The notes: generated by a model from the sequence alone, not told the origin. A stretch of DNA of 64,000 nt from an uncultured Desulfatibacillum sp. (GCA_964573635.1 CAZNKG010000005.1:29759-93758), one strand, 5' to 3'. Numbered from the stretch's first letter, positions 42,619 through 64,000 are shown. Translations and numbers: made by a program.

Positions 42619-44751
<2,133 letters not shown>

Positions 44752-44817: not shown

Positions 44818-45228
44818 TCAGCGCCCCTCGCGCTCGCAGAGCTCGACCAGCACGCCGTTGGTGGACTTGGGGTGCAGGAAGGCGATCTTGGCCCCGCCGG
44901 CCCCCTTCCGCGGCGTCTGGTCGATCAGCTGGACGCCCTTCTGCTTGAGTTCGGCAAGCGCCGCCTCGATGTCGGCGACCCGGAAGGCGACGTGCTGGAT
45001 CCCCTCGCCCTTCTTCTCGAGGAACTTGGCGATGGGTCCGTCCGGCGCGGTCGACTCGAGGAGCTCGACCTCGCTCTCGCCGACCGGAAAAAACGCCGTC
45101 GTCACCTTCTGCTCGGCGACCGTCTCCGTGCCCTCGAAGTCGAGCCCCAGGGTCTCCGTCCAGAAATGCTTGCCGCCTGCGATGCTCTTCACCGCGATGC
45201 CCAGGTGATCGATCTTCAGGATTTTCAT
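44818..45228 (-). CDS. mce: Methylmalonyl-CoA epimerase
   Basis: [26 protein letters not shown]...LVEL VOC motifs; operon context. Confidence 0.93.
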
Positions 45229-45305
45229 ACGAGCCTCCTCGCCCGGTAGCGTTGACCGCCGCGCGCGTCCGCGGCGCACGACCGCTTGCCCATCGCATGG
45301 GCCGG

Positions 45306-45527
45306 TCAGGGGACCGACCGCACCTCCGTCACCTCCGGCACCGCCTGCTTGAGGAGGCGCTCGACGCCGTTCTTGATGGTCATCTGCGACATGGGGCAGC
45401 CGGCGCAGGCCCCCTTCAGGCGCACGGAGACGACCCCGCCGTCGACCGCGACGAGCTCCACGTCCCCGCCGTCGCGCTGGAGCATGGGACGGATCCGATC
45501 GAGGGCTTCCTTGACGTTGTCGAACAT
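45306..45527 (-). CDS. Single-domain NifU/Nfu protein
   Basis: [14 protein letters not shown]...[16 protein letters not shown]; AAAGGAG RBS. Confidence 0.92.
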
Positions 45528-45562
45528 GGCCGCATCTCCTTTCTCAGTTTTCCTGCGGTATA

Positions 45563-46678: not shown

Positions 46679-46708
46679 GCAGCCTCCCGGCGGGCGGCTC
46701 CCGCCCGC

Positions 46709-47752
46709 TCACAAGATGATCATCGCATCCCCGTAGCTGAAGAACCGGTAGCCGCTGCGGACCGCCTCGCGGTAGGCGGCCAGGACGGGCTCCCGGCCGG
46801 CGAAGGCGCACACCAGCATGAGCAGCGTCGAGCGGGGCAGATGGAAGTTCGTGATCAGGCCGTCCACCGCCTTGAACCGGTAGCCAGGGATGATGAACAG
46901 ATCGCAGGTGCCGGCGGCGGGCGCGACGCGGCCGTCCTCGCCGGCGGCGGACTCGAGGGCGCGCACCGCGGTGGTCCCGACCGCGACCGCGCGCTTTCCC
47001 GCCGCCCGCGCGCGGTTGACGGCCTCCGCCGCATGGGTGGGCAGCTCGAAGCGCTCGGCGTGCATCCGGTGGCCGCGGATGTCGCGGCTGCGGACCGGGG
47101 CGAAGGTGCCGTGGCCGACGTGCAGCGTCAACGTGGTCCAGCCGATCCCCCGGGCGCGCAGGTCGGCGAGCAGGCGCGCGGTGAAGTGCAGACCGGCCGT
47201 CGGCGCGGCCGCCGCCCCGGGCACGCGGGCGTAGACCGTCTGGTAGCCCGCGCGGTCCGCGGGGGCGTCCTCGCGGCGGATGTAGGGCGGCAGCGGCACG
47301 TGCCCCACCCGCGCGAGGACCGCCTCGATCTCCTCCGCGGCGGTGAATTCGACCTCGTGGCTCCCCGTCCCGGCCGCGACGACGACGCCGCTCAGCCCGC
47401 CGTCGAAGAGGAAGCGCTGGCCGGCGCGCACGGGCTTGGAGGCCTTGACGAGGCACCGGCATCGGAACGCCGCGCCCCGGCGGGTGCCGCCGGCGAAGTC
47501 GGCGAGCAGCACCTCCACCCGCCCGCCGCTCTCCTTGCGCCCGATCAGCCGCGCCGGCACGACGGCGGTGTCGTTGCCGACCAGCAGATCGCCGGGCGAC
47601 AGCAGCTCCCCCAGCGCGTCGAAGCGGTGGTGCGTGCAGGCGCCGGTCACGCGGTCGAGCGCCAGGAGCCGCGAGCGGTCCCGCTCGGCGGCCGGCTGCT
47701 GGGCGATCCGCCCGGCGGGCAGCTCGTAGTCGTAGTCGGAGAGGGAATACAC
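46709..47752 (-). CDS. queA: S-adenosylmethionine:tRNA ribosyltransferase-isomerase
   Basis: DYDYELP, PLPPYIRR, YQTVYA, AAPTAGLHF, VGTT, TNFHLPRSTL, YRFFSYGDAM. Confidence 0.97.
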   Translation of the reverse strand: MYSLSDYDYELPAGRIAQQPAAERDRSRLLALDRVTGACTHHRFDALGELLSPGDLLVGNDTAVVPARLIGRKESGGRVEVLLADFAGGTRRGAAFRCRCLVKASKPVRAGQRFLFDGGLSGVVVAAGTGSHEVEFTAAEEIEAVLARVGHVPLPPYIRREDAPADRAGYQTVYARVPGAAAAPTAGLHFTARLLADLRARGIGWTTLTLHVGHGTFAPVRSRDIRGHRMHAERFELPTHAAEAVNRARAAGKRAVAVGTTAVRALESAAGEDGRVAPAAGTCDLFIIPGYRFKAVDGLITNFHLPRSTLLMLVCAFAGREPVLAAYREAVRSGYRFFSYGDAMIIL

Positions 47753-50182: not shown

Positions 50183-50448
50183 CCGCCCCTCCCCCCTCCG
50201 CCGAGAGCCGGGCCGCCGGTTGACGCCCCCGCCCGCCCGCGCGGCCGGCCGCCGGCGGTCGCAAGGGCCGGGCCCGATCGCCCGCGGGTTCCAGGCTGCG
50301 GCCGCGCCCGGCTCCGGATGCATGGGGTCATAGTGGACTTCGGCGGAAAACTCAACCGCGGCGCCGGGCCGCGGGGTTGAACCGTTCTGGCCGCCGGGTT
50401 ATGATGCCGCTTCGCAGCCAGGACACTTTCCGAACCAAGGAGCCCGCC

Positions 50449-52965
50449 ATGGCCGATCCGGACCGCCCGATCACGCGGCGCTCGCTGCTGTCGTGGGTCT
50501 TCGACGGCAACCTCAAGCTCCAGCTGGCGCTGCTCGCGGTGATCGCCGTCACCGTCTTCGCGCGCGTCCTGCCGCTCGAGATGCAGAAGCGGATCGTCAA
50601 CCAGGCCATTTCGCTGCGCAACCTCGACCTGCTCCTAATCTACTGCGCCTATTTTCTCGCCGCGGTCGTGGTGGCGAGCGGCTGCAAGTTCCTCATCAAC
50701 ATCCTCGAGACGCTCATCTCGCAGCGCGTGCTCGTGCGCATGCGCCGGGAGCTCTACCGCCACATCCTGACGCTGCCCCTCAACTTCTTCCGCAACACCC
50801 AGCCGGGCTTCGTGGTGAACGCCATCGTCAACGAGCTCGCGGTGCCGTCCAACTTCGCCGGCATGGCCGTCTCGACCCCGGTCGCCAACCTCCTGACGCT
50901 GCTCGCCTTCGCCGCGTATCTCTTGTGGCTGAACCCCCTGCTCGCCGTGGTGTCGCTCAGCATCTATCCCGCGGCGATGCTGCTGATCCCGTTTTTGCAG
51001 AAGCGCGCCAACCTCGCCAACCAGAAGCGCGTCGACCTCGGCCGCCGCTTTTCCGGCAAAATCGGCGAGGCGATCGGCGGCATCCACGAAATCCAGGGCA
51101 ACGCCGCCTTCCGGATCGAGCAGGAGAAGTTCGACGACCTCGCGGAGCGGCTCCGCAGGAACCGCGTCGTCTGGAACCTCTACCGCTTCGGGGTGAAAAC
51201 CGGCAACAACTTCTTCACCAGCCTGGGGCCCTTTTTGGTCTTCATCCTCGGCGGCTACCTGACGATCCGCGGGCAGCTCGAGCTCGGCGCGCTGGTCGCC
51301 TTTCTCTCCGCCCAGGAGAAGCTCTACGACCCCTGGAAGGAGCTGATCGAGTTCTACCAGGTCTACCAGGACGGGGCGGTGACCTACCGGCGGACCATCG
51401 ACTACTTCGACGTCGAGCCCGACTTCGCGATCGAGCCGCAGGGACGGCCGCCGCTCGAGCTCGAGGCGAGCCTCGAGGTCCAGGACTTGAGCGTCGACAC
51501 CGACTCCGGCATCCGGCTGCTCGACGGGATCAACCTCGCCCTCAAGCCGGGCGAGCACCTCGCGCTGGTCGGGTTCTCGGGAAGCGGCAAGAGCACGCTT
51601 GCGCTGTGCATCGCCCAGCTCGCCAAGTACACGGGGGGCCGGGTCTTGATCGGAAACGAGGAGGTCGCCGGGCTCACCAAGCGGGACATGGCCGCCAACA
51701 CCGGCATCGTCTCCCAGACCCCGCTCATTTTCGAGGGGACCATCGCCGAGAACCTCTATTATTCCGCCCGCGCCGCCGCCGGCGACGGCCGGAATCTGGA
51801 CCGCGGAAACGGCCTGCCCTCGCTCGACGACGCCATCGCCGTCCTGCACCAGACCGGCATGTTCGCCGACGTCCTGCGCTTCGGGCTGAACACCCAGCTC
51901 GCCCCCGACCAGAACGAACGCCTCGTCAAGGACATCATCCGCGTCCGCCGCAAGTTCGAGGAGAAATACGGGGCGAAGCTCGCCGAGTGGGTGGAGTTCT
52001 TCAACGAGAACGCCTATCTCAGCCACTCGAGCGTCGCGGAGAACCTGACGTTCGGCACCGCCGTCCGGGAGGAGTTCGCCCCCGAGCGCCTCTCGCGCAA
52101 CCCCTATTTCCTGAAGTTCCTGGAGCGCGAGGACCTCCGGCGGCCGCTGCTCGGCCTCGGCGCCCAGCTGGCCCGCCAGACGCTCGACATCCTGGGGCAG
52201 CTGCCCGCCGAAGCCCTCTTTTTCGAGCAGAGCCCGATCCGCGCCGAGGAGCTGGAGAGCTTCCGGCCGCTCGCCGAGCGCCTGCGGCGGCGCAAAATCG
52301 CCGAGCTCGAGGAGCCCGAGCGCGAGCGCCTCCTCGAGCTCGCCCTGCGGTTCACCCCGGGGGTCCACAAGATGGTCGCCCTGCCCGAGCTGTTCCAGAA
52401 CCTGCTCCTCGAGGGGCGCACGCAGTTCCGCAAGGCCATCGCCCGCGACCTGCCGGGGGCCTTCACCTTCTACGATGCGGGCGAGTACATCTATTCCCAA
52501 ACCATCTTGAACAACATCTTCTTCGGCAAGACCAAGACGTCCAACCCGCAGGCCCAGGAGGTCATCACCCAGAACATCATCCAGCTGCTGATCGAACGCG
52601 ACCTGCTGGAGACCATCGTCGACATCGGGATGAACTACAACGTCGGCAGCAAGGGGGACCAGCTCTCGGGCGGCCAGCGCCAGAAGCTCGCCATCGCGCG
52701 GGTCCTGCTCAAGGCCCCGCGTCTGCTCATCCTGGACGAGGCCACCTCCGCCCTGGACAACACCTCCCAGACCCGCATCCAGAACCTGCTCGAAACCCGC
52801 TGGAAGGGGAAAAGCACCCTCGTCGCGGTCGTCCACCGGCTGGACACGATCCGCAACTTCGACAAGGTCGCCGTCATGAAGGCCGGGAAAATCATCGAAA
52901 TGGGCAGCTACGCCGAGCTGATCGCCCGGAAAGGAGCGCTGTATGAGCTTGTCGGAAGAAAATAG
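50449..52965 (+). CDS. ABC transporter (type IV TMD + NBD with large insertion)
   Basis: TMD; Walker A GFSGSGKST, Q-loop VSQTP, LSGGQ, LLILDEATSALD, VHRL; AAGGAG RBS before ATG 50449. Confidence 0.9.
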   Translation: MADPDRPITRRSLLSWVFDGNLKLQLALLAVIAVTVFARVLPLEMQKRIVNQAISLRNLDLLLIYCAYFLAAVVVASGCKFLINILETLISQRVLVRMRRELYRHILTLPLNFFRNTQPGFVVNAIVNELAVPSNFAGMAVSTPVANLLTLLAFAAYLLWLNPLLAVVSLSIYPAAMLLIPFLQKRANLANQKRVDLGRRFSGKIGEAIGGIHEIQGNAAFRIEQEKFDDLAERLRRNRVVWNLYRFGVKTGNNFFTSLGPFLVFILGGYLTIRGQLELGALVAFLSAQEKLYDPWKELIEFYQVYQDGAVTYRRTIDYFDVEPDFAIEPQGRPPLELEASLEVQDLSVDTDSGIRLLDGINLALKPGEHLALVGFSGSGKSTLALCIAQLAKYTGGRVLIGNEEVAGLTKRDMAANTGIVSQTPLIFEGTIAENLYYSARAAAGDGRNLDRGNGLPSLDDAIAVLHQTGMFADVLRFGLNTQLAPDQNERLVKDIIRVRRKFEEKYGAKLAEWVEFFNENAYLSHSSVAENLTFGTAVREEFAPERLSRNPYFLKFLEREDLRRPLLGLGAQLARQTLDILGQLPAEALFFEQSPIRAEELESFRPLAERLRRRKIAELEEPERERLLELALRFTPGVHKMVALPELFQNLLLEGRTQFRKAIARDLPGAFTFYDAGEYIYSQTILNNIFFGKTKTSNPQAQEVITQNIIQLLIERDLLETIVDIGMNYNVGSKGDQLSGGQRQKLAIARVLLKAPRLLILDEATSALDNTSQTRIQNLLETRWKGKSTLVAVVHRLDTIRNFDKVAVMKAGKIIEMGSYAELIARKGALYELVGRK

Positions 52966-53467
52966 CCTCGCCGCTTCCTGCGAGTTCACCGAAAACCTGA
53001 ACCTTCTGCGGCAGATCCCCTTCTTCTCCGGGATGCCACTTGAATCGCTCAAGGTTTTCGCCTATCTTTGCACGCGGGAAAAATTCCGCCCCGGCGACCA
53101 TCTCGTGCGGCAGGCGGAGGACGACGGGCTGGCCTTTTACATCATCAGCGGCCGGGTCGCCGTCGAGCGCCGCGAGGGGGAGCAGACGATCGTCCTGCGC
53201 ACGCTCGAGCCGGGGGCCTTCCTGGGCGGCCTCTCCCTGCTCGCCGAGTCCCCGCGCCTGTTCTCGCTGCGGGCCGAAACGGAGGTGCTCACCCTGGTCC
53301 TCGGGCGCGAAAAATTCACCAAGGCCATTCGGCAGTACCCGGACCAGGTGCAGCGCATCCTGAACGCCGTGGTGGAGGCGATCGGCGCCTGGGAGACGGC
53401 CTTCCTCGCCAACCGGGCCGAGGCGTGCGCCGCCTGCCTGCCGAACCTGGGAGTCAGCCTGCTGTGA
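52943..53467 (+). CDS. Stand-alone cyclic-nucleotide-binding domain protein
   Basis: LRQIPFFSG, FYIISGRV, PGAFLGGLSLL...PRLFSLRA; no HTH; C-terminal CAAC. Confidence 0.88.
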   Translation: MSLSEENSLAASCEFTENLNLLRQIPFFSGMPLESLKVFAYLCTREKFRPGDHLVRQAEDDGLAFYIISGRVAVERREGEQTIVLRTLEPGAFLGGLSLLAESPRLFSLRAETEVLTLVLGREKFTKAIRQYPDQVQRILNAVVEAIGAWETAFLANRAEACAACLPNLGVSLL

Positions 53468-53937
53468 GCGCCAAGCCTTCCAAGCGCCCCCTTGCCGGCC
53501 GCGGCCCGCATCGCTTTTCCCTCACGCTGCGCAGCAAGCTCTGCGAGCTCGAGCGCCTCTGTTGCAAGCTCCAAGAGATCGGCGCCCGGCTGGGGATCAG
53601 CCCGCGCTGCCTCTTCGAGGTCAACCTCATCCTGGACGAGCTCTTCACGAACATCATCTCGTACGGGTTCGTGGACGCCGGCGAGGAGCACGCCGTGCGG
53701 ATCGCCTTCACCGTGGCGGGCGACCGGCTGGTGGTCGTCGTGCGCGACGACGGCATCCCCTTCAACCCCATCGCCCGCCGATCGCCCGAGCTGCCGTGCG
53801 CCATCGAGGATTGCCAGATCGGCGGGCTGGGGATCCACCTGATCAAGAACCTCGTCGATGAGGTGAGCTACCGCCGCAGCGACGGGACGAACATCCTGAC
53901 CTTCAAGAAGCGCCTGGAATTCGATCGGCCGCAATGA
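53464..53937 (+). CDS. Anti-sigma-factor-type Ser kinase (RsbW/SpoIIAB, HATPase_c)
   Basis: GTG start overlapping the upstream TGA; LDELFTNIISYG, DDGIPFNP, GGLGIHLI. Confidence 0.9.
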   Translation: MSAKPSKRPLAGRGPHRFSLTLRSKLCELERLCCKLQEIGARLGISPRCLFEVNLILDELFTNIISYGFVDAGEEHAVRIAFTVAGDRLVVVVRDDGIPFNPIARRSPELPCAIEDCQIGGLGIHLIKNLVDEVSYRRSDGTNILTFKKRLEFDRPQ

Positions 53938-53948
53938 GGAGGGATTCG

Positions 53949-54281
53949 ATGAACATCATCGAAGAAAAGCACGACCGCGTCAGCACCTTCCGGGTTCAGG
54001 GGCGCCTGGACTCGAACACCTCCCCCGAATTCGAAAAACGCATCTTCGACGCCATATCCAACGGCTCCCGGAACCTGATCGTCGATTTCAAGGACCTGGA
54101 CTACATCTCGAGCGCGGGGCTGCGCGTCATCCTGAAGGCCACCAAGGCGCTCAAGCGCGAGGACGGCAAGATCATGCTCTGCGCGATGCAGGACTACGTG
54201 AAGGAGGTGTTCGAGATCGCCGGCTTCGACTCGTTTCTGCCGATCGCCCCGACGCTGGAGGAGGCCCTGCGGAGCTTCTGA
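53949..54281 (+). CDS. STAS anti-sigma-factor antagonist (RsbV/SpoIIAA)
   Basis: GRLD, DFKDLDYISSAGLRV (phospho-Ser), VFEIAGF. Confidence 0.93.
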   Translation: MNIIEEKHDRVSTFRVQGRLDSNTSPEFEKRIFDAISNGSRNLIVDFKDLDYISSAGLRVILKATKALKREDGKIMLCAMQDYVKEVFEIAGFDSFLPIAPTLEEALRSF

Positions 54282-54302: not shown

Positions 54303-54689
54303 TCAGCGCAGGCCGATCAGCCCCCGGCGGCCGAGCTCGCGGATGAACCGCGTGACCGCCACCTCGGCCTCCTTCGCCTCCAGGCGGTGCGCCGCCGCGA
54401 ATCCGGCCGCCAGCCGGGCGAGGGAGCGGCGCCCGTCGACCTGGTCCCACACCGACGTCCCCAAAAGATCGAGCTGCAGGCGGCCGCGGCGCGGCGGGCC
54501 GGACCCCGACCCGAACAGCCGCGCCATGGCGGCCGCCAAGCCCCGCGGCGGCGCGGCGGGGAACTCCAAGAGCACCTCACCGCCCGGCAGGCGGGTCTCG
54601 GCGACCGCCCGGTTCTTGACCGGGACGCAGTTCAGGGCCTCTTCCCGGGTCGGCGCCGCAGGCTTCCGTCCGGCCGCTGTCGATCGCAT
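54303..54689 (-). CDS. PqqD-family (RRE-like) protein
   Basis: GGAGG RBS; LQLDLLGTSVWDQVDGRRSL...FIRELGRRGLI matches the PqqD winged-helix pattern. Confidence 0.78.
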   Translation of the reverse strand: MRSTAAGRKPAAPTREEALNCVPVKNRAVAETRLPGGEVLLEFPAAPPRGLAAAMARLFGSGSGPPRRGRLQLDLLGTSVWDQVDGRRSLARLAAGFAAAHRLEAKEAEVAVTRFIRELGRRGLIGLR

Positions 54690-55551
54690 ATCCTCCGCAG
54701 AGCTCCTCCCATTCCGATGCGTCCATCTGCCGCGGACCCTCGGCCAGCACGCCGAGGATGCGGTTGGCCGCCTCGACCTGCCAGAACCGCGCCCGGCGGA
54801 CCGGCCGCCTGCCGAGCCAGGCCCGCAGCCTCCCGGCGGGGCCCGCCGCCGGGCCCGGCCCTTCGCCGCCTTCGATGCCCGAGCGGCGGCCGTCGCCGAC
54901 CGGGCGATAGGCGAGTTGCCCGCAGCCCGGCTGCCCGCGGGCGAACTCCTCCAGGCTCCGGCCGCGGAGCAGGACCGCCGCGGGCGCCCAGCGCAGCAGG
55001 CTCACCCGCAGGCCCCGCGCCTCGAAGTCGAGCCGGAAGCGGCCGGCCTCGAAACGCTGGGAGCAGAGCGACAGCCGCTCCGGAACGAGGGCGCGGATGT
55101 CGAAGAGCGCGAACTCCCGGCGGCCGTCCGGCCGGTGGTCGCGTAGGCTGGCGAGGATCTCCGCCGCCGCGCCGCCCGCGCGGCCGGAAAAGAACTGGAT
55201 CAGGGTCGCCGTGCGGCAGGCGGGGCAGTAAAGGACGGCGCCCTCGGCCGAGCCCCCCGCCGCGGTCCAGCGGAAGCCCGCCGCCTCGTAGGCGGAAAGG
55301 GCCGCCGCCCAGGGCGCGGGAAGCGGCCAGGCCTCCACCGCGGCGGTTTTCCTCAACCCTCGGCCGAGGCGGGCGATATGGCGGCGGTGCGAGAAGCGGC
55401 CGCGCACCGGCCGCCATTTGATCTCCAGCGCCGGCCCGCGACCGGACTCGAGCAACAGGTCGCGGGCGCCGACGCGGGCCGGCTGCCACTCGGCGGGGAC
55501 CGAGAGCGCCACCCCGTTCCAGGCGATGTGCTTCGCGGGCGCGGCGGGCAT
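54577..55551 (-). CDS. Hypothetical protein (internal YCPAC motif)
   Basis: Plausible globular sequence (WNGVALSVPAEW, FALFDIRALVP); the C-terminus overlaps the PqqD gene by 113 nt, so the 3' end is doubtful. Confidence 0.6.
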   Translation of the reverse strand: MPAAPAKHIAWNGVALSVPAEWQPARVGARDLLLESGRGPALEIKWRPVRGRFSHRRHIARLGRGLRKTAAVEAWPLPAPWAAALSAYEAAGFRWTAAGGSAEGAVLYCPACRTATLIQFFSGRAGGAAAEILASLRDHRPDGRREFALFDIRALVPERLSLCSQRFEAGRFRLDFEARGLRVSLLRWAPAAVLLRGRSLEEFARGQPGCGQLAYRPVGDGRRSGIEGGEGPGPAAGPAGRLRAWLGRRPVRRARFWQVEAANRILGVLAEGPRQMDASEWEELCGGYAIDSGRTEACGADPGRGPELRPGQEPGGRRDPPAGR

Positions 55552-55575
55552 GGCGGGCGCGAGCGGAGCGATCCC

Positions 55576-56199
55576 TCAGCGCGGGATCAAAAAGTCCCAC
55601 GGGTCGCCCGGCTTGCCCGGGACGGCGGGGCGTTCGCGCCGCTGGTCGCGCCGGCTCCGGCCGCTTTCGCGAAAGCAGCGCTCGTCCTCCTCGATGCGGT
55701 TCAGCAGCGTCAGCTTCACGGCGTTGCCCATCTTTTCGTCCTCGTCGAGGGCGTTGTGCTGCAGGGTCATGCTGATGCGGCCGCCCTCGGCGTCGCTGAA
55801 GGACCATTTCCAGACGACCAGGTTCTTGAAGGGGTCGCCGCGGTACTCCCCCGGCTCGCCGAACTGCTTTTTGAAGCGTCGGAAGAGCTCCTCGAAGGCC
55901 TTGACGCTCCCGTCCTCGTACTTGAGCTTGATCCGCACGATGCGATGCGGTTCGCGGCAGGTCGCGTAGGCGATCAGGCCGCTTTTCACGCCGGGGATGG
56001 GATGCACCTCGACCTCGTGGATATTTTCCATGTAGCGCACCGGAAGGCTCGTTTCCAAGTGGACCCGGTCCTTGAACTCCTCGATCGGCCGATCCAGGGT
56101 GAAGCCCCCGACGGAGCGGGGCGCCGGACCGGCGGCGGCCGCGGCGGCCGCGGCGAGCCAAACGGCGGATAGGGTCGCGATGCGGATCAGGCGGCGCAT
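55576..56199 (-). CDS. Hypothetical exported protein (207 aa)
   Basis: Signal peptide MRRLIRIATLSAVWLAAAAAAA; GGAGA RBS; typical coding composition. Confidence 0.78.
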   Translation of the reverse strand: MRRLIRIATLSAVWLAAAAAAAAGPAPRSVGGFTLDRPIEEFKDRVHLETSLPVRYMENIHEVEVHPIPGVKSGLIAYATCREPHRIVRIKLKYEDGSVKAFEELFRRFKKQFGEPGEYRGDPFKNLVVWKWSFSDAEGGRISMTLQHNALDEDEKMGNAVKLTLLNRIEEDERCFRESGRSRRDQRRERPAVPGKPGDPWDFLIPR

Positions 56200-56290
56200 G
56201 GTCTCTCCCGGGGGAAGCGGCCCCCTTTTAAGGACGTTCGTCCGATTGTAGGGTCGATGCCGGCCAATTGCAAGCGCGGCGCCCCGGCGG

Positions 56291-58255
56291 TCAGTAGGCG
56301 AGGCGGCCGAGCGACTTGAGGATCAGGGTCGCGCCCATGGCGAACATGCCCATGAGGCCCATGCCGCAGGAGAACCCCGCCAGGAGCACGGGGGCGTACT
56401 GGCGCCACATGGCGCCGTAGCGCTTGAGGAAATAAAAGCGGCCGAGCAGCGCGCCGACGACCTCCAGGACGAGCCCGTGCGGGGTGCTCTGGCCCAGCCC
56501 CCGCACCATGCCGTAGACCAGCATGATCGGCAGCCCGAAGAGGGAGAGCACGGCGTAGGTGAGCGTTCCGAGAAGCGCCCCGGCGCCGACGTAGACCCAG
56601 TTGAGCGCCTGGAAGAAAAGGGAGTTGCCCTCCAGCGTCGAGGTCTGCATGAGCAGCGTGTTCAGCGCCTGCAGGTGCCAGAGCTCCTGGGCGAAGGGAT
56701 AGGCCGCCGAGGGGATGGGGGCGAGCCGCCAGATGAACTGCGAGAAGAGCAGGCTGGCGATCATCACCACCGGGAAGACCACGATCTCGCTCTTGATGAT
56801 CCCGCGGATGCTCGTGCCGGTCAGCTCGATCTCGCGGAAGGAGACCGTGGCGCTGCCGTAGTTGTGGATCGGGATGGGCGCGTACCAGATCTCGATCCCC
56901 TGGTAGCCGAAATACTTCGCCCCGGCGATGAAGCTCGCCTCGCGCACGAGCGGCAGGCTGACGAACTGCCCGGCGATCCCCTCCATCCGGGCGGTGACGT
57001 AGGAGAGGACCGGGGTGTAGACGAACCCGTAGAGCAGGAAGAAGACGACCGGGAAATTGGGCACGAGCCAGACGCAGAGCAGCACGTAGGAGAGCGTCGA
57101 GAAGACGTAGATGCCGACCGAGATCCAGAAGTTGAAGTCGCCCCGGCCGGGCGGGGGGCGGAAGAGGTCGCGCCAGCTTCCGGGGCCCGCCTCGCCGCCG
57201 CGGCGGCGGAAGGAGCGCGCCACGTGCCCGATCCCCACCAGCGCGATGGCGAGACCGAGGCCGATCGAGAAGCTCAGGTAGAAGTCGAAGTTGTTGGCGA
57301 AGACCGTCTCGACGGTCCGCATGCCCGGGTGCCAGCGGGTCAAGATCCCGTGGTGGTAGAGGACGGGGTTGGCGACGAGGGTCACGATCAGCCCGCCCAG
57401 CCCCCCGATGACCGCCCAGAAGGGCAGCACCATCCCGATGAAGACGAGCCCGAGATCGAGCTGCAGCCCGGTGGCGACCGCGGGCAGCCACTCCTCGGTG
57501 TGGCCGGTGAGATCGATCCAGGGGATGGGGATCAGCCGGATCGGCTCCATCAGGACGAGCCCCGAGACGGCCGGCAGCAGGACGTAGATCCCGCCGAAGA
57601 AGAGCCCGACGGCCCCGCCGATCGAAAAAACCCGCCATTTCCAGCTGCGCTCGCGCTCCTCGGTCGATTCGGCGAGCGCGAGCGTCCCCAGCGCGGCGAC
57701 CGGCGCCATGGGGAAGGGGAGCTTCTCGACGTCGGAGGTGATGCGGTAGAGGGCGTACCCCAGCCCGAACTGGTCGATGCGGGTGATGATCTGGGTCCCG
57801 ATCAAGAGCAGGATCGGGATCAGCCAGTCGCGGTGGAAAAAGGTGCGCTCGGCGAGCGCCGCGGACTCCGGCGGGGGCGCGACCCACAGGGGGATGTATT
57901 CGGTCAGCCCGAGCATGCGCGCGGCGTCCGACTGGACGAGGTACTGGTTCCACAGCAGCCCCTGGAACGGGGTGTGCAGGGCCGCCCCGGCCATATAGTA
58001 GAGCAGGAAGATCTCCTGCTGCTGCATGTCGCTGTAGGAGCGCTTGGCAAGCTCCGCGAACAGGATGATCGTCACCCAGCGCGCGGCCGGCCCGATGCCG
58101 GTGCCGATCACCAGCTGCAGGTACATGCTGCCGGGCATCATCAGGAAGCCGATGAAGACCGCCCCGACGATCGTGCGCCAGTCGAAGCCCTCCTCGAAGG
58201 CGCTCGGCGTCTTCAAGAGGTCCCGGTACTCCTGGAGCTCCTTGTCCTCTTTCAT
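56291..58255 (-). CDS. Polytopic membrane protein, OPT/YSL-like putative peptide transporter
   Basis: About 15 TM helices; FEEGFDWRTIVGAVF, ARWVTIILF, LPFPMAPV (similar to OPT 'LxFP'), WYAPIP; GGAG RBS before ATG 58255. Confidence 0.7.
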   Translation of the reverse strand: MKEDKELQEYRDLLKTPSAFEEGFDWRTIVGAVFIGFLMMPGSMYLQLVIGTGIGPAARWVTIILFAELAKRSYSDMQQQEIFLLYYMAGAALHTPFQGLLWNQYLVQSDAARMLGLTEYIPLWVAPPPESAALAERTFFHRDWLIPILLLIGTQIITRIDQFGLGYALYRITSDVEKLPFPMAPVAALGTLALAESTEERERSWKWRVFSIGGAVGLFFGGIYVLLPAVSGLVLMEPIRLIPIPWIDLTGHTEEWLPAVATGLQLDLGLVFIGMVLPFWAVIGGLGGLIVTLVANPVLYHHGILTRWHPGMRTVETVFANNFDFYLSFSIGLGLAIALVGIGHVARSFRRRGGEAGPGSWRDLFRPPPGRGDFNFWISVGIYVFSTLSYVLLCVWLVPNFPVVFFLLYGFVYTPVLSYVTARMEGIAGQFVSLPLVREASFIAGAKYFGYQGIEIWYAPIPIHNYGSATVSFREIELTGTSIRGIIKSEIVVFPVVMIASLLFSQFIWRLAPIPSAAYPFAQELWHLQALNTLLMQTSTLEGNSLFFQALNWVYVGAGALLGTLTYAVLSLFGLPIMLVYGMVRGLGQSTPHGLVLEVVGALLGRFYFLKRYGAMWRQYAPVLLAGFSCGMGLMGMFAMGATLILKSLGRLAY

Positions 58256-58294
58256 ACTCCGCCCGGCGCCGCGCAGGCGGCGCAAACCGGCATG

Positions 58295-60322
58295 TCAATC
58301 CGGCAGCACGATGTAGCTCGCGTAGCTGAACAGCCCGTAAACGGCCCAGGACCCGGCCATCAGGAAATCCCCGATGATCAGGCCGACGAAGAAGTAGCGC
58401 AGCCGGCGGAAGAGCGCGATGCCGCCGTAGCGCATGCACAGGGCATTGCAGAGCCACCCCACGAAGAAGCTGAACCACAGGATCCACATGGCCGAGCTGT
58501 AGGCCGTGAGGTACCCGAGGGGGTGGATCGGCCACCAGTAGAACCGGTGGTAGCAGACGACGAGCACGAGCATCACGAGCGCCCCGGCGGCGGTGAAGAT
58601 CATCACCCACTCCCGCGGCCCGGCGGGGCTTTCGATCAGCGTGAAGACCCCCTCGTAGACCGCGAGGGTCGTGCGCACCGCCCAGTCCATCTCGAGCTCC
58701 CGCATGCCGTACTTGTAGCTGACGGCGAGCATGGCGAGAAACGAGACGACGATGCCCCCGGCGAGGGCGGCGAGCAGCACCGCGAGCATCAGGCGCCGGT
58801 TGCGGACCCCCTCGGTGATCTTGCGCGTGTGCAAGAGCGAGGGCATCAGCGACTCGCGCAGGTCGAGGAAGAGCACCTTCTGCACGACGGCCGCCACGAC
58901 GAGCCCCGCCGGGGTGAACACCTTGGAGCCCAGGAAAGCAAGGAGGCCGTCCAGGGGGGCGGCGGTCAGGGTGAAGTAGGCGATCCCGCCCTGGCAGATC
59001 ACCCGCATGGCCACCAGCGTGAACAGAAAGAAGGCCGCCACGACCGCCCCGGAGAGCGCGAGCGGGATGCCGTAGAAGCGGCACCAGAGGACGATCGCGA
59101 TGCTGCCGAGCAGAAACCCCCAGAAGGCGGTGCGCGTCGAGACCCACTCCCCGCCCGCCCCCGGGCCGCTCTCCTTCCGCGCGCCGACGGCCTTGAGCAG
59201 GATGTCGACGAAGTGGAAGCGCGCGAGCCAGGCGAGGAACCCGAAAAAAACGAGATAGGCCCCGATCATCTGGGTCTCCTCGGGCCGCGACAGGGTCGGC
59301 CCGAAGGTCGTCCCCAGCGCCGCCGACGGGATGTTGACCCCCAGGAAGGAGAGCGCCCCGGTCAGGAGGCAGCCGGCGGCGAAGAAGGCCCAGAAGGAGA
59401 AGGAGATCGGTTTGCTCGTGAGAAACGCGAACCCGATGAAGGCCGGGTAAATGTAGATTTTCAGCTTGACGAAGCCCGAGAAGAGGCCGGTCTTGGGGAA
59501 GTACTGGCCGGCCAGGACGAGGGTCGGGATGGAGGGGACCGACGGGTGGTAGAAGCTCAGCCCGTTGACCAGGTGCAGGATCACCGGCACCGCGAGCCCG
59601 GCGAGGAGGAAGCGGTCGCCGAAGAAGCGGCCGAGCCGGTCCGCGTCGAGGGCCTCCTGCATCATGATCGGCACCCGCAGCAGCGGGAAATTCATGCGCT
59701 CGTTGTAGAGCGGCTGCCGGGCGAGCAGGCTCACGATGCAGACCATCACGAGGTAGCACAGGAACACGAAGCCGGCCCAGGTGGCGAGCGGCGCGATCCA
59801 CACCTCCCAGGGGATGCGCGCCAGGATCTCCGACCACGCCATCTGGCGGCCGCCGGGGATGCCGTTGGCGAAGGTGTCGAGGGCCGACGGCGGGCCGGGG
59901 TACCACCCCGCGGGCAGCAGCGGCCAGAGGAGCTCCGGCCAGCGGTTCTCCACGGTGGCGAACTGGAAGGGGGCCGTCAAGTTCACGAAAAAGGTCCGCC
60001 CCAGGCCCGTCCAGGAGATCCCGGAGAGGAGCACCATCAGCGCCCACATGACGAGCGTTTCGCGCCCGGTGAAGAGCCGGCGGCGCTTGAAGACCGCCCG
60101 CAGGAGCGCGGTCACGATCATGATCCAGACGAGCAGGTAGAAGGGGGCGAGCGGGAAGTGCCCGCCGCCGAGCGGCGTTCCCTGCCGGTAGGCGTTGTTG
60201 AACGGAGTGATGAGGCAGATCAGCAGCGCGAGCGCCGCGCCGATCAGCGGGGCCCGCAGGCGGATCCTTTCGCCGGGGCCGGCCTCCGGGCCGTCCGCGG
60301 CGGGTGGGGCGGTGGCGCTCAT
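58295..60322 (-). CDS. Polytopic membrane protein, DUF6785/DUF6784-like
   Basis: About 15 TM helices; RQPLYNERMNFPL, YPAFIGFAFL, GGIAY, WPIHPLGY motifs. Confidence 0.72.
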   Translation of the reverse strand: MSATAPPAADGPEAGPGERIRLRAPLIGAALALLICLITPFNNAYRQGTPLGGGHFPLAPFYLLVWIMIVTALLRAVFKRRRLFTGRETLVMWALMVLLSGISWTGLGRTFFVNLTAPFQFATVENRWPELLWPLLPAGWYPGPPSALDTFANGIPGGRQMAWSEILARIPWEVWIAPLATWAGFVFLCYLVMVCIVSLLARQPLYNERMNFPLLRVPIMMQEALDADRLGRFFGDRFLLAGLAVPVILHLVNGLSFYHPSVPSIPTLVLAGQYFPKTGLFSGFVKLKIYIYPAFIGFAFLTSKPISFSFWAFFAAGCLLTGALSFLGVNIPSAALGTTFGPTLSRPEETQMIGAYLVFFGFLAWLARFHFVDILLKAVGARKESGPGAGGEWVSTRTAFWGFLLGSIAIVLWCRFYGIPLALSGAVVAAFFLFTLVAMRVICQGGIAYFTLTAAPLDGLLAFLGSKVFTPAGLVVAAVVQKVLFLDLRESLMPSLLHTRKITEGVRNRRLMLAVLLAALAGGIVVSFLAMLAVSYKYGMRELEMDWAVRTTLAVYEGVFTLIESPAGPREWVMIFTAAGALVMLVLVVCYHRFYWWPIHPLGYLTAYSSAMWILWFSFFVGWLCNALCMRYGGIALFRRLRYFFVGLIIGDFLMAGSWAVYGLFSYASYIVLPD

Positions 60323-60368
60323 ACGATCCCGGTCCGCGGGTCTCCTTTCCCGGCGATATCGCCGGCCC

Positions 60369-63300
60369 TCACGCGGCGGCCGGACGCGCCGCGCGCGCCC
60401 GGGCCAGCACGGTTTCGAAATGCCGCTTGTCGTCGTCGCCGAGCGAGCGCCAGATGAGCAGCTGCCGGCGGAGCGTGTTCAAAAAACCCTTGTTGATCCG
60501 GTGCCAGGCGTTCAACTCCCCCGATTCGCGCGTCACCGCCACGTGGATCTCGAGAAACCCCCGCTCGTCGGGCGACGGCTTGAAGCGCAGCTCCACCCGC
60601 TGCATGATGCCGAAGTCGAAGGGGGCGAGCCACACCGGGCAGGTGAGGTGCAGGCACTCGGTGTATTCGCAGGCCGCCTGGGGGCACTCCTCGCCGGCGG
60701 CGCCGAAGACCGGCGGCGACTCGCAGGCGAACCCGATCTCCATGCCGGCGGTCGAGAAGTGGCCGTGGGAGACGTCCCGGTGGCCCTCGAAGTAGTCGTA
60801 GAGGAAGCCCCCGACGCTCGCGTGCTCCGGGTAGGTCATGAGGAAGGGAAGCACGAGCGACAGGCGGTTGCCCTCGGCCGGCGGCAGGCTCCAGGAGCGG
60901 TTCACGTCCGGGATGGCGATCTGGGCCGCGACCCGGGAGGGGTAGATCGCCGAAACGAGGACGACCCCCATGACGAGCAGCATCGCCGCCACCCCGGAGA
61001 GCGAGGAGTAGTTCACGGTGATGCCCGACCACAGCGCGCTCTGGGCGAAGAGCTTGGCGCTCGTCTGCGCGAGCAGGTAGCCGCACACGACGCTCAGGAC
61101 CGCAAAGGCCATGGATTCGGCGATGAACAGGAACGCGACGTGCGACGGGGCGAGCCCCACGGAGGTGTAGACCGCGATCTCGCGCTTGCGCTCGTAGACG
61201 CTGCCGATCATGGTGTTCAGCACGATGAAGACCGAGATCGCCAGCGGGATGATGATGTTCGGGACTCCGCTGTAGCTCAGGCTGTCGCTCGCGTGGTAGA
61301 GGAAGGTGCCCTCCGGCTCGCCGCTGAAGAGGCTCAGCCCGAAGCGGTCGACCAGGAACTGGGCGGCCGCCTGGGCGTTCGCGGGCGAGTCGAGCCGCAC
61401 GGCGACCGCCTTGAGCTTTCCCCCGGCGGCGAGCAGCGTCGGCGCGGGGACGATGATCGTGGTTTCGGCGGCGGCGTGCTGGTAGCGGCTCTGGAACTCC
61501 CGGATGTCGTCGCCGGACTCCAGGGCCTCGACCTCCTCCTCGCTCAGCTCGGCGGAGCCCTCCCGCGGGAAGACGGCCGGGGTGAGCGGTTCGCCGTCCA
61601 AATCCGGGCGCTCCCGCAAGCCCCGGGCCGAGAAGACGCCCGCCACCTCGAAGGGCATCCCCCAGAGCAGGACCTGGCGGCCCTCCGGCCGCTGCGGGTC
61701 GATCCCGAGGTTTTCGGCCAGCCGGTCCGGCAGGAGCAGGGCCCGCCGGTCTTGGGCGCTCAACCAGCGGCCGCCGACGAGCGTGCGGTCCAGGCCCGAA
61801 ACCTCGACCTCGCGGTGCGACAACCCCACCATCCCCAGGGCCTCGGTGCGGCGCTCCCCGGCCCGCAGCGGGATGATCGTCGGCCGCGTCGGGTCGGCGT
61901 CTTCGAGCCAGACCCGCGGCACCGCGGCCCCCTCGCCCGCAAAGGCGTTTTCGATCACCCCCAGGGCCTGGGCGGGCAGGTCCTTCCAGTTCACGTTCTT
62001 GAGGAGGATGCCGTGGTAGGCCGCGCCGGCGTCGTATTGGATGCGCGCGTGGCGCCGGAGCGACTTCACCGCGGTGAAGCTCATGATGGTGAAGGTCAGG
62101 ATGACGAGGGTGACGCAGGTGAGCGCCGTGCGCAGCGGCCGGCGGCGCAGGTTGCTCACCCCCAGCAGGAAGGCCGCGACGAAGGCTTTCCAGCGCCCGA
62201 TCTCGCCCGACTGCCGGATCCGCGCCCGGCTCTGGAGCTGGACCATCTCCTGCTCGAAGCGCAGGAAGATGATCAGCGTCACGACGAGCGACAGCCCCAT
62301 GATGAAGAAGGCGAGGATCACCACCATCGGGCTGTAGGCGAGCTGGAAGGCCGGGTGGACGCTGTAGACGACCGCGATCAGCAGCAGCAGGATGGCGCTG
62401 AAGGCGAGGATGCGCCGGTAGATGTTCGCGTAGGCGAAGAGCAGCCGCTCGAGGCAGAAGGCGAAGGGGACGAAGAGCGCGATGTAGAACAGGACGCCGT
62501 AGAGGACGTCCTTCTGGGTCTTTTCGACGTCCTCGTAGACCCGGATGGCGAGCGCCCAGGAGCGCGCGGCGGCCTCGCTGAAGCGGTCGTACTGCCGCGC
62601 GGCGAGCGCCTGCTGCGCGGCGTTCCGCTCGGCGAGGCCCTGCTCCTGCAGGCGGCGGATGCGCTCGTTGAAGATGCCGCGCGCTTCGAGGTTTTCGATC
62701 CGCGGTGCGAGCAGCGTCCACATGTCGTTGGCGGTGCGGTACTCGGTGAGGTGGAGGACCGGGTGCCCCTCGACGGGGTAGCCGCTGCCGACGGGGTTTT
62801 CGTCGCTGCCGTTCAGCAAAAGCATCTTGCGTCGCAGGACCGTGTCCGAGAGCGTCAGCTTGAGCGGGGTGCCGGGCTCGAGGAAAATGCTCGTAATGAC
62901 CGACTGCCAGGTGTCCAGCCGGCTCATGAACCAGCGCAGCGGATCGGCCTCGCGGCGGCCGTCGATGATGTCGGGCTTCGTCAGGTGGCGGAAGGTCCGC
63001 GGCTCGAGCAGATTGAACAGCGTGATGCCGCTGCCGGCGAACATGACGAGGTCCGTCTCCATGAAGCGGCGGTTCATCTTGACCCGGTAGGCGTCCTTGC
63101 CGGTGAGCTTTTTGTCGATCGCCCAGACGGCCTGCCCGCTGTGCTCGTCAAAGCGGTAGCCCTCGATGATGACCTTGTGGAAGCTGTGGGTCTTGTCGGC
63201 GGCCCCCTTCAGGACGAAGCGCCCCTGCTGGTCCGCCATCACCGTGAAGCGCGCCGGGCCCTGGTAGCAGATGAGCACCGTCCCCGGCGCGGGCTTGTCG

Positions 63301-64000
63301 GGGAAGATCTCGCCGTGGCGCAGGAATTTCGCCCGGCCGTTGATGGTGGCGAAGCCGTTGCGCGGAAACTGGCCCTCGTGCAGCTTCGGCGTGCGGCCGA
63401 GACGGGAGAGCATCGCGGAGACGAGCGCCCCCTGCTGGGCGGCGAAGTCGGCGTCGACCGCCTCGGGGGTGTCGGCGGGCGTCCCCCACCGCGCGCGGGC
63501 GTCCCCGGTCGTCACGAGCGTCAGCCCGTGGAGGCCGGCGAGGGCCGTCACCTCGCCGCCGAGCGCCGGCCGGTCGAGGAAATAACTCTGCCAGGACTTG
63601 AGCCGGCTCGGCCGGAGCGTCTGCTGGAAGATCCCGCCGAAGCCGAGGTCGTGCTCGCTCTGCTCCGCGGCGGCGGTGAGCGCCTCGTCGAGCCGGATGT
63701 AGGCCGGGGCCCGGTTGATCCGCGGCCGGAAGGGGTACTGCCAGCCGAGGTTGAAGGCGCCGACCCCCTCGCCGTGGCTCGAGAGGTGCAGCGAGACCGC
63801 CGCGACGATCTCGTAGCCCTGCAGGGCCGCGCGCAGCGCGCCGGCGCTTTCGATGAGCTTCAGCTGCAGGCGCGCATCGGCGAGCAGCGCCTCCTGGTCG
63901 CGGCGCGCCCGGTCCGCGACCGCAGCGAGCAGCTCGCGTTCGGCCGGCGCGAGCCCCGTGTAGGAGGCGCGCCACATGAGCCGGCGCAGAAGCTGCCTTT
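60369..64000 (-). CDS. Giant FtsX/MacB-type permease with N-terminal M28-peptidase-like domain (5'-truncated by window)
   Basis: Frame is open past 63977 to the window end; NLRRRPLRTALT, SVYERKREIAVYTSVGL FtsX motifs; WGTPADT resembles the M28 'HTxxD' motif. Confidence 0.8.
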   Translation of the reverse strand, partial: RQLLRRLMWRASYTGLAPAERELLAAVADRARRDQEALLADARLQLKLIESAGALRAALQGYEIVAAVSLHLSSHGEGVGAFNLGWQYPFRPRINRAPAYIRLDEALTAAAEQSEHDLGFGGIFQQTLRPSRLKSWQSYFLDRPALGGEVTALAGLHGLTLVTTGDARARWGTPADTPEAVDADFAAQQGALVSAMLSRLGRTPKLHEGQFPRNGFATINGRAKFLRHGEIFPDKPAPGTVLICYQGPARFTVMADQQGRFVLKGAADKTHSFHKVIIEGYRFDEHSGQAVWAIDKKLTGKDAYRVKMNRRFMETDLVMFAGSGITLFNLLEPRTFRHLTKPDIIDGRREADPLRWFMSRLDTWQSVITSIFLEPGTPLKLTLSDTVLRRKMLLLNGSDENPVGSGYPVEGHPVLHLTEYRTANDMWTLLAPRIENLEARGIFNERIRRLQEQGLAERNAAQQALAARQYDRFSEAAARSWALAIRVYEDVEKTQKDVLYGVLFYIALFVPFAFCLERLLFAYANIYRRILAFSAILLLLIAVVYSVHPAFQLAYSPMVVILAFFIMGLSLVVTLIIFLRFEQEMVQLQSRARIRQSGEIGRWKAFVAAFLLGVSNLRRRPLRTALTCVTLVILTFTIMSFTAVKSLRRHARIQYDAGAAYHGILLKNVNWKDLPAQALGVIENAFAGEGAAVPRVWLEDADPTRPTIIPLRAGERRTEALGMVGLSHREVEVSGLDRTLVGGRWLSAQDRRALLLPDRLAENLGIDPQRPEGRQVLLWGMPFEVAGVFSARGLRERPDLDGEPLTPAVFPREGSAELSEEEVEALESGDDIREFQSRYQHAAAETTIIVPAPTLLAAGGKLKAVAVRLDSPANAQAAAQFLVDRFGLSLFSGEPEGTFLYHASDSLSYSGVPNIIIPLAISVFIVLNTMIGSVYERKREIAVYTSVGLAPSHVAFLFIAESMAFAVLSVVCGYLLAQTSAKLFAQSALWSGITVNYSSLSGVAAMLLVMGVVLVSAIYPSRVAAQIAIPDVNRSWSLPPAEGNRLSLVLPFLMTYPEHASVGGFLYDYFEGHRDVSHGHFSTAGMEIGFACESPPVFGAAGEECPQAACEYTECLHLTCPVWLAPFDFGIMQRVELRFKPSPDERGFLEIHVAVTRESGELNAWHRINKGFLNTLRRQLLIWRSLGDDDKRHFETVLARARAARPAAA

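Follow-up and report, generated by a model that had tools for sequence, protein, structure and literature searches.

A five-gene neighbourhood of Desulfobacterota encoding an FtsX-type ABC system beside two OPT-fold permeases

What kind of system is encoded by a run of tightly packed, co-oriented genes for membrane and envelope proteins that together resemble no familiar operon? This question is raised by a 64,000-nt stretch of DNA from an uncultured Desulfatibacillum sp. (GCA_964573635.1 CAZNKG010000005.1:29759-93758), which we refer to as the window, and in particular by its positions 54,303-64,000. A first-pass annotation, made from the sequence alone, had read the genes there as one envelope machine for peptide or protein capture, processing and transport, or as a non-canonical peptide-modification and export pathway. 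We found that five genes, encoding a small FtsX protein, an ABC ATPase, a giant FtsX-type permease, a DUF6785 protein and a multi-transmembrane protein termed p654, constitute the core of an undescribed, widely conserved membrane system. Each part can be assigned to some known superfamily. The annotation had known of no characterised system with this combination, and indeed neither the literature nor Pfam, NCBIfam and PDB sequences provided a match to one; a search of the accessible literature on DUF6785, DUF6784 and the gene combination found no published description.

A conserved five-gene core

The G+C content of the window is ~70%, which gives rise to many spurious long open reading frames (ORFs). 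The six minus-strand ORFs described for 54303-64000 are present, are separated by intergenic gaps of 22-91 nt or overlap, and have a coding-type composition, with a G+C content at third codon positions of 0.89-0.97; these six genes are real. The ORF of the giant permease leaves the window at 64000. The missing end of the cluster was supplied by locus L001, a 196.8-kb metagenome contig (JGI 3300037465 Ga0394876_0000162) that was retrieved by exact-protein look-up and is 99.96% identical to the window. The giant gene is complete in L001 (5071-9954) and encodes 1627 amino acids. Directly upstream of it lies the gene of a 245-residue ABC ATPase, as expected from the earlier proposal that an ATPase would be found beyond the right edge. 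The gene order in L001 is two GT28-like glycosyltransferases, an O-methyltransferase, a 233-residue FtsX protein, the ATPase and then the giant. The cluster is thus wider than six genes, extending to 48068 within the window and ~6.3 kb past 64000. The core genes of the window, with the domains of the giant permease that it contains, are as follows.

60369-64000, minus strand: giant FtsX-type permease; the window holds residues ~419-1627 of 1627; Pfam FtsX and MacB_PCD
62250-62513, minus strand: three extra predicted transmembrane (TM) helices of the giant, residues ~914-1001, from a hydropathy scan
61278-62057, minus strand: putative periplasmic core domain of the MacB type in the giant, residues ~1066-1325, between TM1 and TM2 of the FtsX module
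60921-61250, minus strand: FtsX C-terminal three-helix domain of the giant, residues 1335-1444; Pfam FtsX E 4.6e-12
60372-60920, minus strand: C-terminal cytoplasmic domain of the giant, residues ~1445-1627, of no known family
58295-60322, minus strand: DUF6785+DUF6784 protein, 675 residues, OPT/YSL-fold permease; Pfam E 7e-155 and 2e-34
56291-58255, minus strand: p654, a multi-TM protein and putative divergent OPT relative, from a distant-homolog OPT match and hhalign

We scanned one genome per species for this neighbourhood and obtained 80 loci, all from Desulfobacterota and some of them from cultured strains; the orders represented are Desulfobacterales, Desulfobulbales, Desulfovibrionales and Syntrophobacterales. 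The L001 proteins were mapped on these loci by tblastn, and only loci with enough flank were counted. The five core genes, of which those in the window are 39-91 nt apart, are collinear in ~95% of the 80 loci: the same order was kept by the giant in 54/55 loci, by the ATPase and the small FtsX gene in 52/55 each, and by p654 in 69/71. The DUF6785 family comprises at least 3866 clusters at 50% identity, and a profile search for remoter DUF6785 homologs returned Desulfobacterota only.

We also sampled nine distant relatives of the DUF6785 protein, which are 27-43% identical to it, and found that the giant gene adjoins DUF6785 in 5/9 of their loci. All five core genes are present in L093 (46% G+C), in the order DUF6785-giant-p654-FtsX-ATPase and with identities of 30, 33, 46, 43 and 73%, respectively. 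L089 contains DUF6785-giant-p654 and L090 contains giant-DUF6785-p654, and in L088 and L092 the DUF6785 gene is followed by a giant gene that is interrupted by the contig end. The survival of this linkage through re-ordering, at 30-46% identity, is good evidence that the five core genes are a functional unit, in the sense of gene linkage rather than of physical contact. Conservation of the neighbourhood, which had been put forward as a check on the first reading, therefore holds both in Desulfobacterota and, with permuted gene order, in distant lineages. With a core that is shared so widely outside this organism, the finding is better supported than at first reading.

Architecture of the core proteins

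From its N to its C terminus, the giant permease consists of a Sec-type signal peptide, a PA domain, a partial M28 match, a helix-rich stretch, ~450 residues of no recognised fold, three predicted TM helices, a MacB-like module and a tail of ~180 residues. The signal peptide and the PA/M28-like ectodomain are situated beyond 64000 and were read from L001, and roughly 900 N-terminal residues are predicted to be periplasmic. The MacB-like module comprises TM1, a periplasmic core domain and then three TM helices. Within it, Pfam FtsX scored 46.5 bits (cut-off 25.5), whereas MacB_PCD scored 26.6 bits against a cut-off of 27; the L089 homolog, at 30.4 bits, is above this cut-off. The permease of more than 1200 residues recognised in the annotation is thereby borne out as an FtsX-type protein, at a greater full length. 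Its core domain has a weak profile match to the MacB periplasmic domain 3ftj, and PDB sequence matches of its FtsX domain were to MacB, YtrF, LolF and LolC. The region of the three extra TM helices is rich in invariant residues in an alignment of 21 sequences, and through these helices the chain would cross back from the periplasmic to the cytoplasmic side before the FtsX module begins. The C-terminal domain has no Pfam or PDB match; it is kept in distant homologs at 33% identity and contains invariant charged residues.

The ectodomain of the giant is alignable with PA-M28 aminopeptidases and with transferrin receptor 1 (TfR1). The Pfam Peptidase_M28 score was 30.8 bits (cut-off 21.3), for a match confined to the initial third of the model (profile positions 6-72). 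A profile built from 21 giant homologs matched PA-M28 aminopeptidases (YwaD, 2ek8) with an E value of 1.8e-14 and TfR1 with an E value of ~8e-6, in addition to MacB (1.4e-11). In comparison with YwaD, a zinc-ligand histidine is replaced by phenylalanine (VEAFYDS versus VTAHYDS) and the Glu-Glu pair of catalytic and ligand residues is replaced by Gly-His (SGH). We observed these replacements in 58/58 full-length orthologs, the later ligands being outside the aligned region, and the M28 residues are likewise lost in the distant giants of L089, L092 and L093. Because the M28 site is degenerate in every full-length ortholog, the ectodomain is predicted to be a pseudo-peptidase, with a role in binding or regulation instead of proteolysis. 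The catalytic residues are lost as in TfR1, the classic inactive M28 relative; unlike TfR1 and the PA-M28 aminopeptidases, the ectodomain of the giant is fused to an ABC permease. Processing by this domain, an activity that had been suggested for the machine as a whole, is thus unlikely, and in view of the degenerate active site we rejected the giant as an active exopeptidase that feeds the OPT permeases.

Three other loci bear on the composition of the giant. In L091 (2056-5806; Candidatus Poribacteria, JADFGN010000105.1), a DUF6785 homolog is encoded directly before a free-standing M28 protein of 546 residues, which keeps its readable metal-ligand motifs and has lysine in place of the first glutamate of the Glu-Glu pair; the two genes may represent the DUF6785-M28 partnership in unfused form. 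In two Desulfobacterota genomes, at L033 (7662-11992) and L081 (6598-11824), only giant residues 868-1623 and 523-1619, respectively, were matched beside DUF6785, and no p654 was found downstream. These two loci may be degraded or variant.

The small FtsX protein scored 50.1 bits with Pfam FtsX (cut-off 25.5), and a hydropathy scan indicated a periplasmic loop of only ~35 residues between its TM helices. Its best NCBIfam scores were to LolC/E. For the 245-residue ATPase (ABC_tran), the best NCBIfam score was that of LolD (227.9 bits), followed by MacB and FtsE. The core resembles type VII ABC systems (MacB, LolCDE and FtsEX) in its four-helix FtsX module, where TM1 and TM2 of the giant appear to flank a periplasmic domain, in its separate ATPase of the LolD/MacB/FtsE type and in having two different FtsX subunits, as in LolC/LolE. 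It differs from them in that the giant adds ~900 periplasmic residues, three TM helices and a 180-residue cytoplasmic tail, that the small FtsX protein has almost no periplasmic domain, and that the engine is encoded with two OPT-fold permeases. The differences extend to the scores against LolCDE models, which were 42.4 bits for the small FtsX protein against the lolCE cut-off of 362, 227.9 for the ATPase against the LolD cut-off of 307.75, and 16.1 for the giant against 362. Scores against the MacB and FtsX equivalogs were also far under the curated cut-offs, and no HlyD/MFP or OEP family, to which the adaptor and outer-membrane factor of a MacAB-TolC system would belong, was found among the cluster proteins scanned. 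By these curated cut-offs, the system is not LolCDE, MacAB-TolC or FtsEX.

We found that the DUF6785 protein has the fold of OPT/YSL transporters. Its AlphaFold2 model (pLDDT 87.6, pTM 0.89) was compared with the PDB by Foldseek, and the only significant match was barley Yellow Stripe 1 (YS1; 7wst/7wsr), with an E value of 7e-8 and a probability of 1.00. The superposition covers the whole length (~700 columns) with TM-scores of 0.61/0.67 at a sequence identity of 12-13%; the remaining matches had E values >=0.08 and TM-scores <=0.2. YS1 is the solved representative of OPT/YSL, and is a homodimeric, elevator-type transporter (PMC9691689). The sequence of the DUF6785 protein gave no match to Pfam OPT at E<=0.1, and unusually long DUF6785 homologs, when examined for domain fusions, contained insertions only and no informative extra domains.

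The second permease, p654, whose ORF was read as 654/664 residues, has no Pfam or NCBIfam family, and p654 with 31 orthologs gave no match to Pfam OPT at E<=10. Its L089 homolog, which is 42% identical, scored 29.0 bits with Pfam OPT (cut-off 25.8) over profile positions 106-620. A comparison of the p654 and DUF6785 profiles by hhalign gave a probability of 80.6% and an E value of 1.3e-5 over 346 collinear columns; a shallower profile comparison gave a probability of 54%, and BLASTP found no match between the two proteins. PDB sequence and profile searches with the DUF6785 protein and p654 yielded nothing meaningful. The AlphaFold2 model of p654 had a pLDDT of 33, its input being restricted to homologs >=85% identical and hence to a shallow alignment, and we infer the fold of p654 from hhalign and the distant homolog rather than from this model. 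The fold match of the DUF6785 protein, the OPT score of the L089 homolog and the collinearity of the profiles place both proteins in the OPT superfamily, probably as ancient, remote paralogs. The two large multi-TM proteins, which the first-pass annotation had called unrelated-looking, are therefore related, and the OPT-likeness that it had proposed is backed by the YS1 fold match and by transitive homology.

The two proteins resemble members of the OPT/YSL family (PF03169; YS1, 7wst) in the fold of the DUF6785 protein and in their similar size of ~650-680 residues. Known OPTs act alone as proton symporters; here, by contrast, two diverged paralogs lie side by side and are linked to an ABC system. 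We also observed that conservation within the cluster is highest for p654, whose median identity over 76 loci is 79.7%, compared with 59% for DUF6785 and 51% for the giant. It is 72-90% identical across orders of Desulfobacterota, whereas its neighbours are 42-73% identical, and this extreme constraint fits a role with multiple partners. One locus, L073 (10001-15701; Desulfamplus sp.), contains a DUF6785 match that is ~250-300 nt longer than elsewhere, a p654 with an insertion of ~41 residues in a cytoplasmic loop, and a DUF6785-p654 gap of 1.35 kb.

Accessory genes, the exporter module and the cluster boundary

Downstream of p654, the window encodes three smaller proteins on the minus strand, followed by a plus-strand operon (50401-54281) that converges on the gene of the PqqD-like protein and was not part of the earlier account.

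55576-56199, minus strand: p207, a secreted or periplasmic protein with a signal peptide, two invariant cysteines and a WKW motif (23 orthologs)
54577-55551, minus strand: p324, predicted to be a soluble cytoplasmic protein; no TM segment, conserved core at residues ~1-288
54303-54689 (15633-16019 in L001), minus strand: PqqD-like protein, of the RiPP recognition element (RRE) type, where RiPP denotes a ribosomally synthesized and post-translationally modified peptide; 128 residues; Pfam PqqD 32.6 bits (cut-off 23.4)
50401-52965, plus strand: ABC exporter of 854 residues with a transmembrane domain and a nucleotide-binding domain (Pfam ABC_membrane and ABC_tran); first gene of the operon
52943-53467, plus strand: cyclic-nucleotide-binding protein of 174 residues (Pfam cNMP_binding); overlaps the end of the exporter gene and is conserved beside it
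53464-53937, plus strand: RsbW-like, anti-sigma-type serine kinase of 157 residues (Pfam HATPase_c_2); synteny conserved
53949-54281, plus strand: STAS protein of the anti-sigma-antagonist type, 110 residues (TIGR00377, 88.7 bits; cut-off 53.45); synteny conserved
48068-50182, minus strand: HAMP-SpoIIE (PP2C) membrane phosphatase (Pfam SpoIIE E 6e-48, and HAMP); divergent from the exporter gene

The secreted 207-residue protein of the annotation begins with a hydrophobic segment, which we also read as a signal peptide; the mature protein would have ~180 residues. Searches with p207 found no Pfam, NCBIfam or PDB relatives and no detectable similarity to LolA. p324 likewise has no Pfam, NCBIfam or PDB relatives. 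It had been listed as a CxxC hypothetical protein; the CxxC motif is not invariant in an alignment of 20 orthologs. In the window, the p324 ORF extends 113 nt into the gene of the PqqD-like protein (54577-54689) and encodes a Gly/Arg/Pro-rich tail, whereas orthologs lack this tail and end near residue 288 (..ICxxY); the tail may be the result of a lost stop codon or a sequencing frameshift.

The assignment of a PqqD-type protein held at the level of Pfam, and orthologs also support its reading as 128 residues. An N-terminal extension (M.lFKKK...sReEAL.C.PVKN...GEvll.YP..RPW) is conserved in ~40 orthologs, which argues that the protein has ~120-128 residues and that a public call of 74 residues is truncated. 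This extension also suggests the three-strand and winged-helix layout of PqqD/RRE proteins, with an insertion of ~15-20 residues relative to the canonical layout, as judged by eye. All NCBIfam PqqD-type models scored far below their cut-offs (TIGR03859, 14.8 bits versus 46), and, unlike in known PqqD/RRE systems, the protein is always paired with an uncharacterised 290-residue protein, p324. Searches of the cluster proteins with Pfam and NCBIfam found no PqqA/B/C/E, radical-SAM, YcaO, lanthipeptide or lasso enzyme. p324 is without a family, so it could conceivably be a modifying enzyme of an unrecognised type. We found no family of small ORFs of 20-130 residues conserved across the 80 loci, only antisense shadows, and an Rfam search of six loci found no riboswitch or other RNA match. 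The cluster therefore does not qualify as a RiPP cluster: an RRE domain is present, and a precursor gene and a modifying enzyme were not found.

For the accessory and exporter genes, we counted 49 loci with a downstream flank of 10 kb. After p654, p207 is present in 25/49 of these loci, p324 in 36/49 and the PqqD-like gene in 35/49, and this set was seen only in Desulfobacterota. Because they are absent from L089, L093 and about a quarter of the Desulfobacterota loci, we regard the three proteins as accessories and not as parts of the core machine. The grouping of the genes into one functional unit is thus supported for the conserved five-gene core, and not for the PqqD-like, CxxC and secreted proteins that the annotation had included.

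The exporter contains an insertion of ~235 residues in its nucleotide-binding domain, at which NCBIfam matches are split (residues ~461/696) and which appears to be kept in orthologs, as tblastn matches are nearly full-length. It scored below all equivalog cut-offs, the nearest models being MsbA, TAP, HepA, HlyB and NHLM, and also PglK. Linkage of the exporter to the accessory set was seen in 24/49 loci. Co-oriented genes of the exporter and the cyclic-nucleotide-binding protein separate p654 from p207 in L052 and L078, as does the entire module in L084, which indicates that the exporter module belongs to the same neighbourhood unit.

The STAS protein has a median identity of 66% across loci. 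The RsbW-like protein scored 49.4 bits with NCBIfam RsbW, against an equivalog cut-off of 145. The SpoIIE phosphatase is near the exporter module in 8 loci; it is probably the third partner of a partner-switching set, and it marks the cluster boundary. A STAS antagonist, a HATPase_c_2 kinase and a PP2C phosphatase are thus encoded together, as in an Rsb-type module (RsbU/RsbV/RsbW), and here the STAS protein and the kinase share the operon of the exporter. General scans of 48-64 kb and of L001 revealed no sigma factor gene. A partner-switching set around an exporter without a nearby sigma factor gene suggests control of a transporter rather than of transcription, and the regulation of an ABC ATPase by a STAS protein in MlaB-MlaF offers an analogy that suggests control of the exporter by the partner switch.

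On the other side of the core, many loci contain, upstream of the small FtsX gene, a block encoding a GT4-type glycosyltransferase, a histidine-phosphatase-family protein, a GT28-like protein and a DUF2334/polysaccharide-deacetylase-like protein. We read this block in L046, L052, L079 and L084; in L001 (350-3456), two GT28-like genes and the O-methyltransferase gene replace the GT4/phosphatase/DUF2334 block. GT28-like genes are upstream in 33/53 loci, and the order GT1-HisPhos-GT28-DUF2334 is kept across three orders. In content, the block is reminiscent of a small pathway for a glycoside or glycolipid. Beyond the phosphatase boundary, positions 36349-47752 of the window contain queA, tgt and genes for a glyoxalase-family protein (possibly methylmalonyl-CoA epimerase), a methylmalonyl-CoA mutase with MeaB, a carboxyltransferase, a biotin-carboxyl-carrier/oxaloacetate-decarboxylase-like subunit and a succinyl-CoA-synthetase beta subunit. 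These look like genes of the methylmalonyl-CoA (propionate) pathway, with a housekeeping role unrelated to the cluster.

A possible mechanism and its rivals

We tentatively propose that the core carries out ATP-powered extracytoplasmic capture that feeds OPT-type import. Type VII ABC systems such as MacB, LolCDE and FtsEX use ATP to drive motion in the periplasm, and are not known to conduct substrate through the membrane; the OPT fold, in contrast, offers a route for translocation. By analogy, the two FtsX proteins and two copies of the ATPase would form an asymmetric, LolCDE-like mechanotransducer, in which the dead PA/M28 ectodomain would bind an extracytoplasmic ligand as its receptor or clamp. 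The likeliest ligand would be an oligopeptide or some other small substrate of oligomeric or chelate type. ATP hydrolysis would drive capture of the ligand and then its release or hand-over to the two OPT-fold proteins. These would move it inward by an elevator mechanism, probably as a heterodimer, as the dimeric YS1 suggests and in a mirror image of the FtsX pair. As an add-on in Desulfobacterota, the periplasmic p207 and the cytoplasmic p324 with the PqqD-like peptide-binding protein would handle cargo on either side of the membrane, and the exporter, under its cyclic-nucleotide-binding protein and the RsbW/STAS/SpoIIE switch, would close the cycle or export a product. The use of the accessory set for receipt or sensing of cargo, together with regulated export, is the weakest step of this scheme and is speculative. 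We consider it less likely than not that the system is an unrecognised hybrid class in the full sense, with a heteromeric type VII ABC transporter that has a TfR-like dead-peptidase ectodomain and is physically and obligately coupled to an OPT-fold heterodimer, and with the RRE-type binder and regulated exporter of Desulfobacterota plugged in. Such a class would join extracytoplasmic capture driven by ATP to translocation of the secondary type.

Several observations weigh against capture coupled to import. L089 has neither an ATPase nor a small FtsX gene within 10 kb. Three of the nine distant DUF6785 homologs (L086, L094 and L095) stand alone, with no ABC partner. L086 and L095 have a sugar-utilisation setting, in which genes for glycoside hydrolases, ThuA, a rhamnogalacturonan-lyase-like protein and LacI/GntR regulators are nearby; in L094 the homolog adjoins an aldo-keto reductase. 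These stand-alone homologs imply that the family can be independent of an ABC partner and may not carry peptides, and substrates of the DUF6785 family may include sugars. The genes of p207, p324 and the PqqD-like protein are absent from L089 and L093, both of which have full flanks, and are missing within 10 kb in 12/49 Desulfobacterota loci. In addition, the glycosyltransferase, phosphatase and deacetylase-like genes upstream in ~60% of loci hint at a non-peptide cargo.

These upstream genes are central to one alternative, namely that the system serves envelope biogenesis by LolCDE-like extraction of a glycolipid, lipoprotein or lipid-linked glycan from the inner membrane. The cargo would then come from the GT4/histidine-phosphatase/GT28-like/DUF2334 genes, the exporter may flip it, p207 would receive it and the OPT-fold proteins would be flippases or scaffolds. 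The frequency and kept order of the block, the ranking of LolC/E and LolD as best models for the small FtsX protein and the ATPase, the presence of MsbA and PglK among the nearest models of the exporter, and the LolA-like size of mature, periplasmic p207 are all consistent with this reading. We nevertheless consider it unlikely, given that the glycosyltransferase genes are absent from ~40% of the Desulfobacterota loci and from L093, that the Lol, MsbA and PglK scores are all far under equivalog cut-offs, that p207 has no detectable LolA similarity and that, to our knowledge, the OPT fold is associated only with soluble substrates. A different role for the dead ectodomain would follow if the giant were an FtsX protein fused to an EnvC-like module, consisting of a coiled coil and a dead metallopeptidase domain. 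ATP hydrolysis would then toggle this domain, which would switch on some other enzyme of the periplasm or control the gating of the OPT-fold permeases. FtsEX-EnvC, which activates amidases, is a precedent; an FtsX module is present in the core together with an FtsE-like ATPase, every ortholog has a degenerate metallopeptidase domain, and this domain is followed by a helix-rich segment (residues ~320-470) that looks like a coiled coil when read by eye. Yet the cluster contains no conserved hydrolase partner, and the dead domain is of the M28/PA rather than the LytM/M23 type. Such a regulator, which we judge to be rather improbable, also overlaps with capture and import instead of excluding them.

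The stand-alone DUF6785 homologs and the lack of a nearby ATPase in L089 would be explained if the transporters were independent and merely co-regulated, with the two OPT-fold permeases importing nutrients by themselves, the FtsX ABC system doing an unrelated job, such as detoxification, and adjacency due to common regulation or inheritance. Against this are the persistence of linkage through permuted gene orders at 30-46% identity, the tight spacing of the core genes and the giant next door in five of the nine distant DUF6785 loci, and we think it quite unlikely that the transporters are independent in this way. The remaining alternative is a non-canonical RiPP or peptide-signal pathway, in which the PqqD-like RRE with p324 would bind a ribosomal peptide and the cyclic-nucleotide-regulated exporter would send it out. 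The giant and p207 would then deal with it in the periplasm, and the OPT-fold proteins might take it up again as a signal. NHLP-type bacteriocin exporters carry cNMP-binding-type domains, and here a cyclic-nucleotide-binding protein is encoded beside an exporter that resembles, below cut-offs, HlyB, NHLM and bacteriocin exporters. The PqqD domain is above the Pfam cut-off, and the exporter operon shows tight linkage to the accessory set. However, the search of the 80 loci yielded no conserved small ORF inside the cluster or next to it, and Pfam and NCBIfam yielded no modifying enzyme; curated models of PqqD systems all scored far under their cut-offs, and the PqqD-like, p324 and exporter genes are absent from L089 and L093. 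A peptide-modification pathway, the second possibility raised in the first-pass annotation, is thus very unlikely.

We return to ATP-powered capture feeding OPT-type import as our tentative interpretation. The system is common in sulfate-reducing Desulfobacterota, and its cultured carriers, including Maridesulfovibrio sp. FT414, Desulfopila sp. IMCC35008, Desulfogranum marinum, Solidesulfovibrio aerotolerans and Desulfatibacillum aliphaticivorans, make it directly testable. DUF6785 and DUF6784 gain a first functional context and a fold assignment, and the unnamed p654 family gains a context. In the ectodomain of the giant, bacteria would have their own counterpart of the inactive M28/PA ectodomain of receptor type. 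Finally, a partnership between a type VII ABC system and OPT-fold proteins that is conserved at ~30% identity suggests ATP-assisted capture with uptake or hand-over, which would be novel for both families.

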